A stretch of DNA of 58,219 nucleotides from Eubacteriales bacterium (GCA_045532985.1 JAZSGY010000047.1:1-58219), one strand, 5' to 3'. Shown: positions 3,379 to 12,872, counted from the stretch's first letter. Made by a program: numbers and translations. The notes: a model not told the origin generated them from the letters alone.

Positions 3379-4695
3379 GTGGAAGTTAAAGTATTGAAAT
3401 TTGGCGGTAGCTCGCTTGCCGATGCATTGCATTTCGGCCGCGTTGCCGATATTGTAAGGGCGGAGGAGTCGAGAAGATACGTCGTACCGTCCGCCCCCGG
3501 AAAACGTTTTAAGGAAGACGATAAGGTCACCGATCTTCTGTATCAGTGCTACGACCTTTCAAAGCGCGGTGAGAGCATTGACGCCGTCTTTTCGCGTATC
3601 AAGGATCGCTATAACGACATTATCCGCGACCTCGGTCTTGATTTTTCGCTTGAGGATGAGTTCGCGAAGATCTATTCGGCGATCCAGCATCTTCCGGGCC
3701 GCGATTACGTTGCAAGCCGCGGGGAATACCTGAGCGGTCTTGTCTTGGCGAATTATCTCGGATTTGACTTCATCGATGCCGCAAACGTTATTTTCTTTAA
3801 GGAAAATGGCACCTTTGATTCCGAGCGTACGAACGTCGTACTGAATGCGATCTTGAAGCAGCATTCTCACGCCGTCGTTCCCGGCTTCTACGGCTCTATG
3901 CCGAACGGAACGATCAAGACCTTCTCGCGTGGCGGGTCCGATATCACGGGCTCTATCGTTGCACGTGCGGCAGGGGCAGATCTTTATGAAAACTGGACCG
4001 ACGTTTCGGGCTTTTTGAAGGCAGACCCCCGTTGCGTCGACAATCCGAAGCCGATCAAAGAAATTACGTATAAAGAACTGCGCGAGCTTTCCTATATGGG
4101 CGCCACCGTACTTCATGAGGATGCTATTTTCCCCGTACGCTTTGCGGGGATCCCGATCAACATCCGCAATACCAACGCCCCCGAGGATCCTGGGACGATG
4201 ATCGTATCCTCTGCAACCTATCACGACGGTGACGACGTAATCACCGGCGTCGCAGGTAAGGTCGGTTTTTCTATCCTCAATATTGAAAAGGATATGATGA
4301 ACTCCGAGATCGGATTTGGCAGACGCGTTCTTGAGGCGCTTGAGAATAACGGTATCTCCTTTGAGCACTTGCCGAGCGGCATTGATACGATGTCGGTCGT
4401 TATCTCTACGAAGGATCTGGAAGGGAAGCGCGACAAGATCATCAACGACGTATGTCGTCTTGTTGAGCCTGAATTCATCAGCATTGAGGACGGTCTGGCA
4501 CTTGTTGCAGTCGTCGGACGCGGAATGGTCAGCAACAAGGGAACTGCTTCGCGCGTTTTCTCAGCCTGTGCCGCGGCGTCCGTCAATATCAAAATGATCG
4601 ACCAGGGTTCAAGCGAGCTGAATATCATCATTGGTGTCAGTGAGGATGATTATATTCCCGCACTCAGAGCAATTTACAATGAATTTGTAAAATAA
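3379..4695 (+). CDS. lysC: Aspartate kinase
   Basis: KFGGSS, FSRGGSD, WTDVSG, ELSYMGATVLH and two C-terminal ACT domains; AAGGAG RBS with GTG start. Confidence 0.93.
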   Translation: MEVKVLKFGGSSLADALHFGRVADIVRAEESRRYVVPSAPGKRFKEDDKVTDLLYQCYDLSKRGESIDAVFSRIKDRYNDIIRDLGLDFSLEDEFAKIYSAIQHLPGRDYVASRGEYLSGLVLANYLGFDFIDAANVIFFKENGTFDSERTNVVLNAILKQHSHAVVPGFYGSMPNGTIKTFSRGGSDITGSIVARAAGADLYENWTDVSGFLKADPRCVDNPKPIKEITYKELRELSYMGATVLHEDAIFPVRFAGIPINIRNTNAPEDPGTMIVSSATYHDGDDVITGVAGKVGFSILNIEKDMMNSEIGFGRRVLEALENNGISFEHLPSGIDTMSVVISTKDLEGKRDKIINDVCRLVEPEFISIEDGLALVAVVGRGMVSNKGTASRVFSACAAASVNIKMIDQGSSELNIIIGVSEDDYIPALRAIYNEFVK

Positions 4696-5084
4696 AAAAT
4701 CACCCGCTTTAGCGTGATACTCTTAACGGAGTATTCACGCTAACTAAGTTTGCCCTTACGGGCAAGTGAAGTTATCTTCGATAGTGAAGTTCACTTTGTG
4801 AGTGAAGTTTCGCCTGATGGCGAAGTGATGGGCAAACTTAACTTCACTTGTGCGTAGCACAAACTTCACTGCGTAGCAACTTCACTTTTGCGATAGCAAA
4901 AACTTCACTAACAGAAAAAGAGATAACATTTCGGCTACGAACCGATTTGTTATCTCTTTCTGTAGTTATAAGGGTTTGGGCTTAGCCCATATTGCATTTG
5001 ACTAGTCAAATGCGATGCTCGCACTTAATAGCGCTTTTCAAATTCTCCGCTAAGAACATCACCCATTTGCGGGTGATTTTTTAT
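4692..5084. mobile_element. Putative non-autonomous ~360-bp insertion inside a palindromic bidirectional terminator
   Basis: Perfect 16-bp outer inverted repeat 4692-4707/5069-5084. Junction sites ATCAC-CCGC-TT-TAGC-GTGAT (4699-4718) and ATCAC-CCAT-TT-GCGG-GTGAT (5058-5077). Subterminal inverted repeat 4714-4735 vs 5041-5062 (18/22 identical). No credible ORF. Mobility is inferred. Confidence 0.6.
4745..4909. repeat. Mirror-symmetric array of 9-nt repeats separated by variable hairpins
   Basis: AGTGAAGTT at 4765, 4783 and 4801 (partial AGTGA at 4824); reverse complement AACTTCACT at 4840, 4862, 4878 and 4901. Each spacer between same-orientation copies is a self-complementary stem-loop. Confidence 0.9.
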
Positions 5085-5500
5085 GCAAGCTTCTTCAGGA
5101 CGCCCTGGAACCATTCTTCAACTTTAGCAGATTCTTCGGCACTGACCTTCTTCATAAACTTGAAGGGAAGTCCTCCGTTAATGTAAAGAACGTCATCTAT
5201 AACGTTCGTGCCTGCTTCCTTGATCATATTGATCACAGGCTCAGCCTTTGCCGCATCGCCGTCAACGATAAAAGCAACGTTCTGTGCGCGGGACTTATCG
5301 AGTGATTTTGCGAACAGATCAAAGGTCGTCGTCGTTTTGCCCTTCGCAGTGAAAACGATGATTACCAAGCGCTCGCGCTCGCAGGGATAAGCAGGGGGAA
5401 TGATATCGGCCTTATAGTCCGAATTCGAAGCAAGAGTGCTGGCAATCGAGAGAAGCTTGCCCTTGCTCGTGTCTGTCAAAACACGCAGTTTCATCTTCAT
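5081..5500 (-). CDS. Flavodoxin-fold hypothetical protein
   Basis: 139 aa with GGAGG RBS before the ATG at 5500. The beta-alpha pattern (LRVLTDTSKG...LVIIVF...NVAFI...GTNV...EEWF) resembles short flavodoxins. Confidence 0.6.
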   Translation of the reverse strand: MKMKLRVLTDTSKGKLLSIASTLASNSDYKADIIPPAYPCERERLVIIVFTAKGKTTTTFDLFAKSLDKSRAQNVAFIVDGDAAKAEPVINMIKEAGTNVIDDVLYINGGLPFKFMKKVSAEESAKVEEWFQGVLKKLA

Positions 5501-5558
5501 ATGAAAATCCTCCAAAATACTGGTAAAATAATTTTGATACAACCAGCCTATCGATACT

Positions 5559-5587
5559 ATTATATCATATCCTTCTATAAAAAGCAA
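5559..5587 (-). promoter_or_regulatory. sigma-A promoter of the flavodoxin-like gene
   Basis: TTGCTT-17 bp-TATAAT with TG extended -10 on the minus strand. Confidence 0.7.
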
Positions 5588-6087
5588 TAGCAAAATCGCA
5601 TTTTACGTGCACACCCGGTGATGAGAAAGAACGGGAATTCTAAAAAAACAAAATCACAGCAGGGCGATGTAAAATAACACCCCTCGTGCACACCGCCGTA
5701 ATTATACAAAATGCAAATTTTGTATCAAATAGAGAGGTGAAATAAGCGTATCAAGGGCAAAAGAGTTAAATATAAGGCGTTTTACGGTGTTTGACCGATT
5801 AATAGACGTTGCCGAGTTTCTGACAGATATTCAGTAAATAATATGGCTTGATCAACGGCAAAACAAAAAACAAGCCGATCGTGGTAAAATAAAAACAATC
5901 TGCGAACGAAAAAACTTCAAGCTATCGTTATTCATCTAGAACACAGTTAATGCATTTAAAAGTTCCTCAGATTTTCTTCGTCCTTTTTTCTTTCCGTAAT
6001 TTAATTTTTCTTATTATCATATTATTATCTAAAAGAAATCTTTTGTATAATAATGTTACAAAGAAACAACAAATTTATTAAAAGTGA

Positions 6088-6534: not shown

Positions 6535-7311
6535 ATGCAAAAAGAATTTGAAAAATTTAAGGATTCTACGATTTTTGAAGGGATGACCTCAATTCGCGCG
6601 CTTTTAACGGCGCGTGAAAACGGATCGAACGACCGAAAGATTTTAGAGATCCTTTACGATACGTCACGTTCTTTTAAAATAGCCAAGGAATTGCGTTATT
6701 TAACGCGCATCGGCGAAAGAGATTCCTTTTCCGTCACCGGACTTTCGCCCGATGAGCTTGCCGAATTAACGCTTGGCAACACGCACGGCGGTATTATCGC
6801 ACGATGCTCTAATCGCACGATTGCGGACCTTTCGGTCGAATCGCATTCGATTGAGAAAAACGGTTTTTACGTATTGATGGAAGGAATTGAGGATCCATAC
6901 AACTTCGGTTATGCGTTGCGCTCTCTTTACGCTTGCGGTGCTACGGGTATTATCCTGCCCGAACGCAATTGGATGAGCGCTGCGGGCGTCGTCGCAAGAT
7001 CCTCTGCAGGTGCCTCTGAGCTTTTCCCGATCTATCAATCCAACACTGAAACTGCGCTGTCCGTATTCAAAGCACAGGGCTATAAGATCGTGTGTGCTGA
7101 TATTGGCACCGAAAATCTTTTGCCCGACACAGATCTTTCCCTTCCGCTATTACTCATTGTAGGCGGCGAAAAACGAGGAATTTCCAGAAGTGTACTCGAT
7201 CAGGCTGACACCGTTGTAAAGATCCCGTATGGCAGAGATTTTCGCGGAGCGCTCTCTGCGGCCTCGGCTACAACCATCTTAGCATATGAAATTTTACGAC
7301 AAAACCGATAA
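6535..7311 (+). CDS. TrmH/SpoU family RNA 2'-O-methyltransferase
   Basis: EGIEDPYNFG, SSAGA, IVGGEKRGIS, KIPY and LSAASA SPOUT motifs. Confidence 0.88.
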   Translation: MQKEFEKFKDSTIFEGMTSIRALLTARENGSNDRKILEILYDTSRSFKIAKELRYLTRIGERDSFSVTGLSPDELAELTLGNTHGGIIARCSNRTIADLSVESHSIEKNGFYVLMEGIEDPYNFGYALRSLYACGATGIILPERNWMSAAGVVARSSAGASELFPIYQSNTETALSVFKAQGYKIVCADIGTENLLPDTDLSLPLLLIVGGEKRGISRSVLDQADTVVKIPYGRDFRGALSAASATTILAYEILRQNR

Positions 7312-7314
7312 AAT

Positions 7315-7344
7315 AAATGGGCAGAACTTTGTTCTGCCCATTTT
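7315..7344. terminator. Bidirectional terminator between the methyltransferase and galE
   Basis: Perfect 13-bp stem AAATGGGCAGAAC-TTT-GTTCTGCCCATTT between convergent stop codons. Confidence 0.85.
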
Positions 7345-7345
7345 C

Positions 7346-8365
7346 TTATTCATCCGGGTAGCCGTCCGGATTTTGCTTCTGCCAACGTGCCGAATCAAGA
7401 CACATTGCGGCAAGATCACGCTCAGCCTTCCAACCAAGGACCTCATAAGCCTTTGTGGGATCAGCATAACACTCTGCAATATCTCCCGCACGGCGATCTG
7501 CGATCTTGTACGGAACGGGAGCGCCGTAAGCTTTTTCAAATGCTTTTACGATCTCGAGGACCGAATAGCCGTTGCCGGTTCCAATATTGAAATATTCGAT
7601 CCCCGTCACGTCCTTTGTGCGCGCAAGCGCTTTCAGGTGTGCAAGCGCAAGGTCAACGACGTGAATGTAATCGCGAACGCCCGTACCGTCCTTGGTGGGA
7701 TAATCGTTACCGAAAACATTCAGGCAAGGCAGCTTTCCTGCCGCAACCTTTGCAACGTAAGGAAGCAGATTGTTGGGGATCCCGCGGGGATCCTCGCCAA
7801 TCAAGCCGCTTTCGTGTGCGCCGATCGGATTGAAATACCGCAAGATCGATACGCTGAAATCGGGATTCGGAACACAGGTGTCCTTCAGGATGCGCTCGAT
7901 CATCAGCTTTGTCTCGCCGTAGGGATTCGTAGTCGAAAGGGCGAAATCCTCACGGATCGGAACCGTTTTCGGCGTTCCGTATACCGTTGCCGATGAGCTG
8001 AAAACGATTCTGTTCACGTTATGTGCAAGCATACAATCAATGAGATTGAAGGTGCCCGTCAGATTGTTGTGGTAATACTTGATCGGAAGCTGTACTGATT
8101 CTCCAACTGCCTTCAGACCCGCGAAATGAATCACAGAATCGATCTCGGGATGGCGATCAAAAACAGCAGATAAAGCATCCTTATCGAGAAGATCTACCTT
8201 ATAAAAGGTCGGTCGCTTCCCCGTTATTTGTTCAATGCGATCCAGAACGCAGAGCTTACTGTTGTATAGATTATCAACAATGATCGGATCTTCGCCCGCT
8301 TTCAAAAGTTCAACGACAGTGTGGGAACCAATATAGCCGCTACCGCCTGTTACAAGAATAGACAT
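7346..8365 (-). CDS. galE: UDP-glucose 4-epimerase
   Basis: TGGSGYIGSH, FSSSATVYG, YGETK, LRYFNP and GVRDYIHV; start moved to ATG 8365 (GAGGAG RBS). Confidence 0.97.
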   Translation of the reverse strand: MSILVTGGSGYIGSHTVVELLKAGEDPIIVDNLYNSKLCVLDRIEQITGKRPTFYKVDLLDKDALSAVFDRHPEIDSVIHFAGLKAVGESVQLPIKYYHNNLTGTFNLIDCMLAHNVNRIVFSSSATVYGTPKTVPIREDFALSTTNPYGETKLMIERILKDTCVPNPDFSVSILRYFNPIGAHESGLIGEDPRGIPNNLLPYVAKVAAGKLPCLNVFGNDYPTKDGTGVRDYIHVVDLALAHLKALARTKDVTGIEYFNIGTGNGYSVLEIVKAFEKAYGAPVPYKIADRRAGDIAECYADPTKAYEVLGWKAERDLAAMCLDSARWQKQNPDGYPDE

Positions 8366-10469: not shown

Positions 10470-12872
10470 TTAACGTACGACGATATTGACGATCCTTCCG
10501 GGAACAACGATCTCCTTCACAACCGTTTTTCCTTCAAGACCTGCGGCCATTGCCTCATGCTGCTTTGCGGCGGCAAGCAGAGCGTCCTTGTCGGCGTTCT
10601 TCGGAACGGTAATAACGCCCTTCAGCTTTCCGTTGATCTGTACCGCGATCTCGACCGTCTGATCGACCGTCTTTTCTTCGTCGTAGGCGGGCCACTGAGC
10701 GAGCGAGACCAGCCCCTTGTTCCCCATAGCCTCATAAACCTCCTCGGCAATGTGGGGGGCAAACGGAGACAGAATCGTTGCAAACGTAGAAAGCTCCTCT
10801 ACTGTGATGCTTCCTACCTCATAGACCTCATTCATAAACGCCATCATAGCGGCAATTGCGGTATTGAACTTCATCTCATCGATGTCAGAAGTCACCTTTT
10901 TGATGGTCTTATGCAAGGACGCATCAAGCGCCGCAGTCGTACCGTGTCCCTTAACCAACTCGGTAAGACCGGCAAAACGGTCAAGGAAGCGCTTGCACCC
11001 CTTGATGCTCTGCGGATTCCATGGAGCCGCCTTCTCAAAATCACCAATAAACATTTCATAAAGACGCATCGTATCCGCACCGTAATCACGAACGATATCG
11101 TCGGGATTGACGACGTTTCCGCGCGACTTCGACATCTTCTCGCCGTTCTCGCCGAGGATCATACCGTGAGAGGTGCGCTTCGCATAGGGCTCCTTGCAGG
11201 ATACTACGCCGATATCGTACAAAAACTTCGCCCAGAAGCGAGAATAAAGCAGGTGCAGGGTCGTATGCTCCATACCGCCGTTGTACCAATCAACCGGCAT
11301 CCAGTAGTCGAGCGCTTCCTTAGCCGCAAGTGCCATATCGTTTTTGGGATCGCAATAGCGCAAGAAGTACCAGGACGAGCCTGCCCACTGCGGCATCGTA
11401 TCTGTTTCGCGCTTTGCAGCGCCGCCGCACTTCGGGCAGGAGCAGTTGACCCACTCATCCATTGCGGAAAGCGGCGACTCACCCGTAGCAGTCGGCTCGT
11501 AGGAGGCAACGTCAGGCAAACGCAGCGGAAGCTCTGATTCGGGAATTGCAACCCAGCCGCACTTTTCGCAGTTTACAAGCGGGATCGGCTCACCCCAATA
11601 ACGCTGACGGGAAAATACCCAGTCACGGAGCTTATAATTGATCTTCTTGACACCAATTCCCTTCTCGGTCAGGAAAGCGATGATCGCGTCCTTCGCCTCG
11701 GCAACCTCAAGACCGTTCAAAAAATCCGAATTGACCATTTTTCCGGTCTCAACGTCGGTAAACGCCTCGCTTTGGACGTCGCCGCCCGCAACGACTTCAA
11801 TGATCGGCAGGTCAAATTTCTTTGCAAAATCCCAGTCACGCGTATCGTGCGCAGGCACTGCCATGATCGCACCGGTACCGTATCCCGCCAAAACGTAGTC
11901 GGATACGAAGATCGGGATCTCCTTACCGTTGACGGGGTTGATCGCCATCACGCCGTCAAGCTTCACGCCGGTCTTTTCTTTGACGAGCTCAGTACGCTCA
12001 AAATCGGATTTCTTCGACGCATCCGCTCTGTATGCCGCGATCGCATCGTAATTCTTCAGTTGATCCTTCCAGCGCTCAACGAATTCGTGCTCGGGCGCGA
12101 TAACCATATAGGTCGCACCGAAAAGCGTATCGGGGCGTGTGGTATAAACACGCAGTTTTTCACCAACGGTCGTATCAAAATCGACCTCCGCACCGGTCGA
12201 ACGACCGATCCAGTTGATCTGCTGGGTCTTTACCCTTTCGATAAAGTCAAGGGGTGCCAGGTCATCGATCAGTCGATCTGCATATGCCGTGATCTTCAGC
12301 ATCCACTGATCCTTTACCTTATGAATGACCTCACTGCCGCAACGCTCGCAAACGCCGCCAACGACCTCCTCGTTCGCCAAAACGACCTTACAGGAGGTGC
12401 AGAAGTTGACGTTCATCTGCTTCTTATATGCGAGCCCCTTCTCGAACAGCTTCAAAAAGATCCACTGCGTCCACTTGTAGTAATTGGGATCAGTGGTATT
12501 CACCTCACGCGACCAATCGAAGGAAAGCCCCAGAGCCTTCAGCTGAGACTTAAAACGGGCTACGTTATTTTCGGTTACGATCGCGGGATGGATCTTATTC
12601 TTGATGGCGTAATTTTCGGTCGGCAGGCCGAATGCGTCCCACCCCATCGGGAACAGTACGTTATATCCCTGCATTCTCTTTTTGCGCGAAACGATATCAA
12701 GCGCGGTATAAGGACGCGGATGTCCTACGTGAAGACCCTGTCCCGAAGGATACGGGAACTCAACCAGCGCGTAGTATTTGGGCAAGCTGTAGTCGTCTTT
12801 TGCCACAAATGCGTTTTCGTCATCCCCTTTCTTTTGCCATTTTGCTTCAATTGATTTGTAGTCGTACTTCAT
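10470..12872 (-). CDS. leuS: Leucine--tRNA ligase
   Basis: [45 protein letters not shown] and KMSKS. Confidence 0.98.

Follow-up and report, generated by a model that had tools for sequence, protein, structure and literature searches.

The word-and-hairpin array at the ask locus

The window considered here, the whole analysed stretch of 58,219 nucleotides (GCA_045532985.1, JAZSGY010000047.1), belongs to a draft genome of the Eubacteriales of 1.8 Mb in 107 contigs, with a G+C content of 54.6% and a completeness of 95% (G000 where it has to be told apart from others). It contains ask, an aspartate kinase gene (PF00696 plus ACT domains) whose stop codon ends at 4695, and convergent to it an open reading frame (ORF) at 5081-5593 on the minus strand that encodes 170 aa and has no Pfam or NCBIfam match. 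Between the two genes, at about 4710-5067, lies a small non-coding mobile element which splits the terminator of the convergent neighbour and carries an array of a constant short word and small hairpins at 4745-4909. This array, its relatives in the same and in other genomes, and the protein gene to which many of them are linked are the subject of this report.

The word AGTGAAGTT is found exactly at 4765, 4783 and 4801 on the plus strand and at 4840, 4862, 4878 and 4901 on the minus strand. These seven matches are all that the 58,219 bases hold, compared with a mean of 0.45 and a maximum of 3 in 100 dinucleotide shuffles, none of which reached seven. The left array arm (4745-4828, plus strand) is composed of a partial word, a first hairpin (HP1), three units of word plus hairpin with the words at 4765-4773, 4783-4791 and 4801-4809 as located by exact word search, and a second partial word at 4824-4828; it includes the part that aligns with the Rfam family Gut-1. 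The array centre (4830-4840) consists of a second copy of the 3' arm of HP1 together with the complement of the partial word, and the right array arm (4840-4909, minus strand) carries the remaining four words with hairpins HP5 to HP7. Perfect stems of 6 bp are formed by HP1 (4750-4765), HP4 (4809-4824), HP5 (4848-4862) and HP7 (4886-4901), of 4 bp by HP2 (4773-4783) and HP3 (4791-4801), and of 3 bp by HP6 (4870-4878), and a scripted stem check found zero non-pairs in the seven. The closing pair is C.G in 7/7 hairpins, and the loop read in the sense of the word runs T..C in 5/7; on the plus strand the loops of the right arm are GTA, GTA and GATA, the mirror of the T-first loops of the left arm.

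An earlier note, made from the sequence of the window alone, had described a mirrored array of a constant word alternating with unique hairpins, which the seven word matches against 0.45 expected and the seven perfect spacer stems confirm. Its extent of 4745-4909 stands for the array, but the left arm holds three full words and a partial AGTGA, and the element as a whole spans about 4710-5067. The note had also proposed a competing pairing of 4745-4755 with 4830-4840; the inverted-repeat search finds the two segments to be exact 11-nt complements (100%), and the same pairing recurs in other arrays and varies together with the word. Chance similarity is refuted by the word count. Against an assembly artefact stands the recurrence of the element, which four independent public runs have in their contigs and which is present in dozens of genomes; a CRISPR-like array has only its repeat-spacer look in its favour, the units of 16-23 nt being far below CRISPR size; even taken jointly these three explanations carry a negligible probability.

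In a cmscan search of Rfam, positions 4741-4813 of the plus strand aligned with the complete Gut-1 model (RF01706, positions 1-77/77) at 49.0 bits and an E-value of 2.2e-8, 1 bit below the curated gathering score of 50 bits. The three stems of the model are occupied by HP1 to HP3, and its linker positions by GTGAAGT. No Gut-1 match was reported for the right arm on the minus strand at E<=10, and at the same threshold the other Rfam families gave chance-level matches only over 4300-5400. Gut-1 was introduced as a three-hairpin candidate trans-acting small RNA, recorded in that description from human gut metagenomes only and from no cultivated organism; the tables of the study rate it 'Y' as an RNA, and the seed rows of its supplementary alignment show GUGAAAU, GUGGAAU and GUGAUAU linkers (Weinberg et al. 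2010, Genome Biol 11:R31, PMC2864571). In the supplements to that paper the term occurs in tables, an alignment archive and a figure file only and has no prose description, and a full-text literature search for the name or accession returned only the original paper and one benchmarking paper of 2026.

The array is a near-threshold member of the Gut-1 kind that is mirrored, multi-copy and modular. It shares with the published motif the three small hairpins, the GUGAAAU-like linker and the link to gut metagenomes, and its left arm covers the whole model. The published motif is, however, a single arm, whereas in the window this arm is half of a two-armed structure; arrays of the window type are multi-copy with many alternative words beyond the reach of the model, and the window array is embedded in a mobile element while arrays of its kind are linked to a protein gene. 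The window's genome has 16 Gut-1 matches at E<=10, four of them above the cut-off at 50.6-66.4 bits, and these include convergent plus/minus pairs about 100 nt apart at C98:10925/11054 and C35:71/165 (contig and position). Gut-1 matches occur in 70 of 101 related genomes including that of the window (51/60 of the genus and 18/40 from other families of the order), with up to 37 matches in one genome, and in none of 14 control genomes was there a match above the cut-off.

The mobile element and its landing sites

The region at about 4710-5067 is an element that resembles a MITE (a miniature transposable element with inverted repeats), being small, non-coding, bounded by terminal inverted repeats (TIRs), present at many unrelated loci and absent from the corresponding site of a relative. 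In the nearest relative (G133, locus L047), the one genome in which the empty site was compared, the counterpart of window positions 4200-4709 directly abuts that of 5051-5600, with flanks that are 91% identical, and the site is a plain bidirectional terminator, a stem of 9 bp with a 4-nt loop set between an A-run and a T-run. The window retains the two halves of this terminator, the left arm at 4700-4708 after an A-run behind ask and the right arm at 5069-5077. The earlier note had found no named family for the region and had itself named a match to a known Rfam or MITE family as what would speak against this. That part of the note does not hold, for a full-length alignment to RF01706 only 1 bit under the cut-off and a MITE-like element that has many copies and whose site is empty in a relative together come essentially to such a match.

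When window positions 4200-5600 were searched with BLAST against 120 genomes of the genus, G133 matched over the two flanks, and in many other genomes matches were confined to the interval of about 4709-5067, at unrelated loci and often several per genome. Twenty-eight such loci were fetched, at 76-96% identity and 16 of them nearly full length. Nineteen of these were aligned with the window, and after L050 had been dropped for its foreign left end 19 copies remained, the window included (alignment A1). In the aligned copies homology starts at the left hairpin at about 4710 and ends near 5064-5067. The sequences flanking a copy are mutually complementary over at least 7 bp of perfect pairing in 18/19 copies, with a mean of 11.4 bp as against 6.2 bp for 342 mismatched flank pairs, a control that is itself inflated by pairing of A-runs with T-runs; the A-run stands on the left and the T-run on the right. 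Since the flanks of 18/19 copies pair together, each copy lies in the loop of a terminator hairpin.

The left TIR (4710-4744, plus strand), where homology starts in 19 other copies, is a 14-bp hairpin with one bulge; it exists in two stem variants that both keep the pairing, and the same hairpin is present at C48:10755 of the window's genome. The right TIR (5041-5067, minus strand) lies near the point where homology among copies ends, and the inverted repeat that includes both ends (4692-4735 and 5041-5084) has a length of 44 nt and an identity of 80%. The core pattern of the TIR, GTGATRYTCTTARCGGAG, is common to all copies and forms plus/minus pairs 290-510 bp apart in the window's genome and in five others; the five other high-copy genomes hold 82 TIR matches, and the window's genome about nine copies or fragments. 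Downstream of the array lies a long internal hairpin (4912-4962) with an inner small hairpin at 4931-4945, which is terminator-like on both strands, with an A-run before and a T-rich run after it. It is followed by the two small hairpins of the right module (4978-4988 and 4994-5013; helices 13 and 14 of the alignment, 97.4% paired), which recurs at C93:16283-16385, C74:1-154 and C21:2949-3101 of the window's genome. The element contains a single ORF, of 45 aa, and none of 60 aa or more.

The last seven bases of the element equal the 5' arm of the host terminator that it split, so that a complete terminator is rebuilt at the right end (5058-5084, plus strand; stem 5058-5077 with 7 pairs and a T tail, including the host right arm). 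This match could be a coincidence, or the element may prefer targets that look like its own end. A solo end-hairpin of about 30 nt was observed inside a terminator loop at C38:5580-5625 and C56:1-35 of the window's genome, and may be either a footprint left by excision or the element in minimal form. TT, TTT or TAT flank most of the 19 copies on both sides when inspected by eye; these repeats are short and lie in T-rich terminator loops.

The backbone of the element is rare outside the genus, occurring in 5/200 genomes of the order and in 0/10 from other genera of the same family. Copies of the right module that are 90% identical are nevertheless present in two other families (G072 C4:17252-17406 and G173 C2:8503-8648), and this identity despite the rarity suggests horizontal spread. 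A blastn search of phage and plasmid collections with 4706-5072 gave no match. No autonomous relative with the same ends and a transposase was found in the window's genome or among the 82 TIR matches of the five draft genomes. A single wide TIR pair (2.36 kb, in G131) was considered as an autonomous copy and rejected, its enclosed 593-aa ORF being read, without a family scan, as a host gene between two copies. A second candidate empty site, a DNA contig of run X1 that joins 4695 to 5154, was set aside as too weak, with a depth of 3.4 and a shorter side of 27 nt.

Conserved pairing, array grammar and the PF05635 gene

The pairing of the element was assessed with 14 local helices on the 19-copy alignment, in which 92.6% of the cells pair and 17/80 pairs show double-sided changes. 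Shuffled controls gave 10.5 +/- 1.6 such pairs, with 0/500 reaching 17, and sliding the partners by 1-3 columns gave 3-8. Nine of the pairs with double-sided changes are among the 35 stem pairs of the array and six lie in the long internal hairpin at 4917-4959; helices 11 and 12 (4912-4962) have 99-100% of their cells paired, and helix 12 shows double-sided changes in 6/16 pairs. The proportion of paired cells and the double-sided changes indicate that the hairpins have been selected for pairing and not for sequence, as the earlier note had supposed from the perfect stems. Single copies differ further by a duplicated array unit (L048), a hairpin nested inside a loop (L053, L074), replaced hairpins (L065, L066, L068) and, in L073 and L074, a word that is switched on both arms from GTGAAGTT/AACTTCAC to GTGATGTT/AACATCAC.

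A larger sample was formed by 123 non-identical arms with Gut-1-type words from the window's genome and the fetched loci, which are related copies and not independent. Of their 340 spacers 251 form hairpins with stems of 4 bp or more, and among these 176 sequences are distinct. The approximately 1379 stem pairs comprise 0 G.T, 3 A.C and 7 other mismatches, as counted by a scoring that penalises mismatches and misses terminal G.T pairs, so that terminal wobbles are under-counted. The loops are strand-coded: read in the sense of the word they run T..C in 161/251 hairpins and G..A in 1/251, the closing pair is C.G in 227/251, and the opposite strand accordingly reads C-GNA-G or C-GNNA-G. Among DNA mini-hairpins, GNA triloops with a closing C.G pair are the classic case of hyperstability. 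As the arms mirror each other, both loop types are found on each strand, one per arm. The combination of pure Watson-Crick stems and a strand-coded loop is a better fit to an element that acts as DNA than to a single transcript, and as far as these sequence patterns go the stems without G.T and the GNA/GNNA loops of one strand favour single-stranded DNA over RNA. The non-Watson-Crick cells at 4912-5013 (helices 11-14) are 30 G.T against 2 A.C on the plus strand; this excess hints at use as a plus-strand RNA, but stems mainly from two polymorphic columns of related copies.

A k-mer scan followed by reading revealed at least 22 arrays of the same build with different words in the window's genome. 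At least eight words are in use, namely GTGAAGT (in the window only), GTGAAAT, GTGATAT, ACATCAT/GTGATGT, TGAATTG, ATATCGA, GATGAAGTC and GTTATGA. The typical array opens with a strong hairpin or terminator and a short CAAC-like junction, followed by the 3' part of the word and HP1; three units of word plus hairpin and a partial word lead to the centre, after which come four units of the complementary word plus hairpin. The centre repeats the 3' arm of HP1 and adds the complement of the partial word. Where the word differs between arrays, the piece before HP1, both arms and the centre all differ alike, and this holds even on a shared backbone (the window compared with C6, C93, C98:25805 and C85); a centre of this composition is also recognisable by eye in arrays with other words. 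Most stand-alone arrays directly follow the T-run of a terminator, on the strand for which the first arm is the sense arm, and several copies in this genome end at contig ends. A one-directional array of 18 ATATCAC words was seen at about 1350-1800 of locus L045 (G022 C68), with three hairpins that recur in a fixed order and a higher-order period of about 65 nt, a recurrence which implies that arrays are able to grow by tandem duplication.

Three genes of the PF05635/TIGR02436 family are present in the window's genome, and all three have a two-armed array directly upstream. The first unit (L076:618-1215, equal to C98:10917-11514, with the gene at 11167-11514) has the word GTGAAAT and the second (C38:21385-21921) the word TGAATTG; the third, with the word ACATCAT, runs from C9:2195-2392 into C93:22686-22219, its array spanning the contig break. 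PF05635 proteins are small four-helix-bundle proteins which Pfam names '23S rRNA-intervening sequence protein', and 2RLD, the one relative with a solved structure, is entered as an 'uncharacterized protein' and has five chains in its entry. In relatives, 30 PF05635 loci with a total of 87.6 kb were examined with an array detector that had found 8 arrays when all spacers had to be hairpins and 11 (one doubtful) in a relaxed version, against 0 in a shuffled genome; its counts are lower bounds, as about half of the arrays seen by eye were missed. It reported 18 arrays in the 30 loci, and 16 of these (at 16/30 loci) lie within 202 nt upstream of the gene start, a zone that makes up 8.6% of the 87.6 kb. 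Reading by eye added six loci with clear arrays and two in which a contig end cuts the array, and one locus is ambiguous.

In five loci (L090, L091, L093, L095 and L101) the 330 nt read upstream of the gene contain tandem heptamers without hairpins that reach the ribosome-binding site, and it looks as if the word alone is able to stand before a PF05635 gene. Four other genomes have the unit of hairpin, array, promoter and gene at 82-88% identity, with homology that stops at the stop codon, and in L119 the window's own word occurs in an array before a PF05635 gene, 85% identical over 66 nt. Among 24 genomes, one per family, nine have both Gut-1 and PF05635, three Gut-1 only, two PF05635 only and ten neither (Fisher p 0.012, Spearman 0.78), although related genomes are not independent. 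A short-word BLAST with the left hairpin and the right module of the window element found no match near the 30 PF05635 genes.

Interpretation and comparison with known systems

The reading preferred here is that the array is probably the core of a selfish mobile DNA of uncultured gut Clostridia, one that is selected as DNA hairpins and is not a dedicated RNA gene. How it moves, that it acts at the level of DNA, which protein is its partner and that it is read through are what we infer from the patterns above. It is proposed that the loop of the bidirectional terminator that lies between ask and the convergent ORF has received a non-coding element of about 357 bp, with the array, a word of 7-9 nt (here GTGAAGT) plus private mini-hairpins, as its central module and with an internal terminator-like hairpin of its own. 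Element and array module would be propagated and selected as DNA hairpins, either single-stranded or extruded. The trans-acting partner is likely to be the PF05635 four-helix-bundle protein encoded beside 'complete' arrays elsewhere in the genome, and the window copy, probably a passenger, would become the 3' end of the ask transcript by read-through. Read-through into the array is likely because the rebuilt terminator is the first canonical plus-strand terminator downstream of ask, the scan passing over the 4912-4962 hairpin with its too long loop, and because a sequence scan found no promoter-like site within the element.

This same position upstream of the first canonical terminator would also suit a functional structured RNA, either a Gut-1 small RNA in line with its published 'Y' rating or a rod of four-way junctions in the 3' untranslated region of ask that could serve as an exonuclease block, a scaffold or a sponge. 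The folding energies are in keeping with such a role. For 4740-4912 the minimum free energy as RNA is -62.6 kcal/mol on the plus strand (z -5.8) and -60.3 kcal/mol on the minus strand (z -5.7), and as single-stranded DNA -39.4 kcal/mol (z -6.75), with 0/200 shuffles as good in each case, so that the folds, whose calculation for both strands the earlier note had suggested, are all far better than those of shuffled sequence. The ladder of paired words with seven side hairpins, another of its suggestions, is energetically plausible at -56.4 kcal/mol as RNA and -35.3 kcal/mol as DNA, compared with -32.2 and -23.4 kcal/mol for the hairpins without the ladder. The words of both arms always co-vary, as in L073 and L074, and the nine array stem pairs with double-sided changes would be expected of an RNA as well. 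RNA-library contigs cover 4735-4990 (two metatranscriptome and two DNA runs were compared, the contigs being without strand or ends). The depth of the element relative to its flanks, on the other hand, is about 6-13 in the RNA libraries and thus not above the ratio of about 40-60 in the DNA runs, and the loose contig ends cluster at 4742, 4908-4910, 4968 and 5067, which are module borders and fit a mosaic element. Stems with 0 G.T in about 1379 pairs are unusual for RNA helices, and a loop bias that is tied to the orientation of the word and mirrored would leave one transcript with two opposite loop grammars. Most stand-alone arrays sit directly behind a terminator T-run on the strand of their first arm, with no promoter-like site inside the element of the window, and the copy numbers of up to 37 per genome, the gain and loss of copies and the landing in terminator loops all fit selfish DNA. 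Selection as DNA hairpins is therefore favoured, and a dedicated structured RNA is considered unlikely.

Considerably less probable still is an array that is bound as double-stranded DNA, in the manner of an operator, a centromere-like site or the iterons of a transposon end, in which the hairpins would be no more than spacers. Each inverted arm has three to four direct words, which does recall multi-site transposon ends or partition sites, and arrays are located just upstream of PF05635 gene promoters. It would, however, leave unexplained the 251/340 spacers that are perfect palindromes, their C.G closing pair and their asymmetric loops; at least eight words in one genome face only three candidate protein genes, and a 7-nt word is short for specific duplex recognition. 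A bolder extension of the preferred reading, tentative and somewhat more credible than the RNA, holds that the arrays and the PF05635 protein form a two-part selfish system of an undescribed kind. A ring-shaped PF05635 oligomer (compare the five chains of 2RLD) would bind four to five copies of the word, presented by single-stranded DNA between nuclease-resistant C-GNA-G mini-hairpins, and the binding would promote copying or insertion of the array beside or into other hairpins. Solo arrays such as that of the window would then be non-autonomous offspring, and the 23S rRNA intervening sequences with the same protein would be the same trick played on rRNA helices.

Several observations weigh against selfish DNA that acts through its hairpins. 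The compensatory changes and the loop bias, as patterns in sequence, would fit RNA equally, the terminal wobbles are under-counted, and the array, which is covered by contigs of two RNA libraries and lies before the first canonical plus-strand terminator, is probably transcribed. The evidence for an empty site rests on one comparison, and the end repeat of 2-3 nt is compatible with a target duplication but too short and too T-rich as proof of one. No transposase or other mobilising enzyme was found, nor any copy longer than about 510 bp in the six draft genomes, and the Y1 transposase domain PF01797 (RAYT/IS200-type) has 0 matches in the window's genome while control genomes are positive. The window copy has no adjoining PF05635 gene, and four or five of the eight words have no gene-linked array, depending on whether GTGATGT is counted with ACATCAT.

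Among known systems the REP/BIME/REPIN elements with their RAYT transposases, in so far as they are covered by the sources cited here (PMC2817692, PMC3333891, PMC3337134), are similar in being intergenic palindromes of high copy number, located at the ends of genes and grouped with linkers into alternating or inverted clusters, and in showing selfish DNA behaviour tied to one small gene family. They differ in that the REP palindrome is constant and the linker varies, whereas an array of the present kind keeps its word constant and has private palindromes (the 176 distinct sequences among 251 hairpins); the window's genome has no Y1/RAYT gene, and the linked gene encodes a four-helix-bundle protein and not a nuclease. 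Insertion sequences that target hairpins are a second parallel. IS1397, ISKpn1 and IS621 are described as targeting REP sequences (PMC1525189), and for IS1272 an account is given of an 'inverted-repeat-replacing' transposition in which there is no target duplication and the repeat is replaced (PMC5678879). As in these and in MITEs, the element is small and non-coding, has TIRs, many copies and an empty site, and its target is a DNA palindrome and not a sequence word. The target in the window is, in contrast, the loop of an intrinsic terminator, and the element brings a replacement terminator-like hairpin and a word-and-hairpin array and is without a cognate transposase in the genomes searched.

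The protein family itself leads to a third comparison, the intervening sequences with a PF05635 ORF that lie inside helices of 23S rRNA and are removed from the RNA. The family, the insertion at the tip of a hairpin and the bounding inverted repeats are shared; the arrays described here differ in that they precede the gene and are not placed around it, and the window element has no such gene. The Foldback (FB) transposons of Drosophila consist of two long inverted arms of tandem short subrepeats with little or nothing between them. They resemble the array in having two inverted arms of short subrepeats but are eukaryotic and much larger, and their subrepeats are not a word plus a private hairpin.

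Since 2010 Rfam has listed Gut-1 as an orphan 'small RNA' of uncultivated gut bacteria, and the ask locus recasts this motif as one arm of a mirrored array whose stems have the behaviour of DNA palindromes and a loop code that depends on the strand. The motif moves as a module, in this case in an element that lands in terminator loops with a spare terminator-like hairpin, and has a tie to PF05635, a protein family that is likewise an orphan and is known from the intervening sequences of rRNA, which makes the two a testable pair. For annotators, Gut-1 matches are dispersed repeats that break assemblies, as the several copies at contig ends illustrate. Taken alone, the window has a modest practical meaning as a passenger element in the 3' region of ask.

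Two minor observations were made beside these. The ORF at 7286-7996 on the plus strand of the window encodes 236 aa and has no Pfam or NCBIfam match. On another contig of the same genome, three 40-nt direct repeats with a CGTGAAA core (C71:17657-17773) lie just upstream of a ParA-like gene whose product starts MAKIISFANQKGGVGKT; these look like a partition or iteron region of the ordinary sort on a plasmid-like contig, with no relation to the hairpin arrays.

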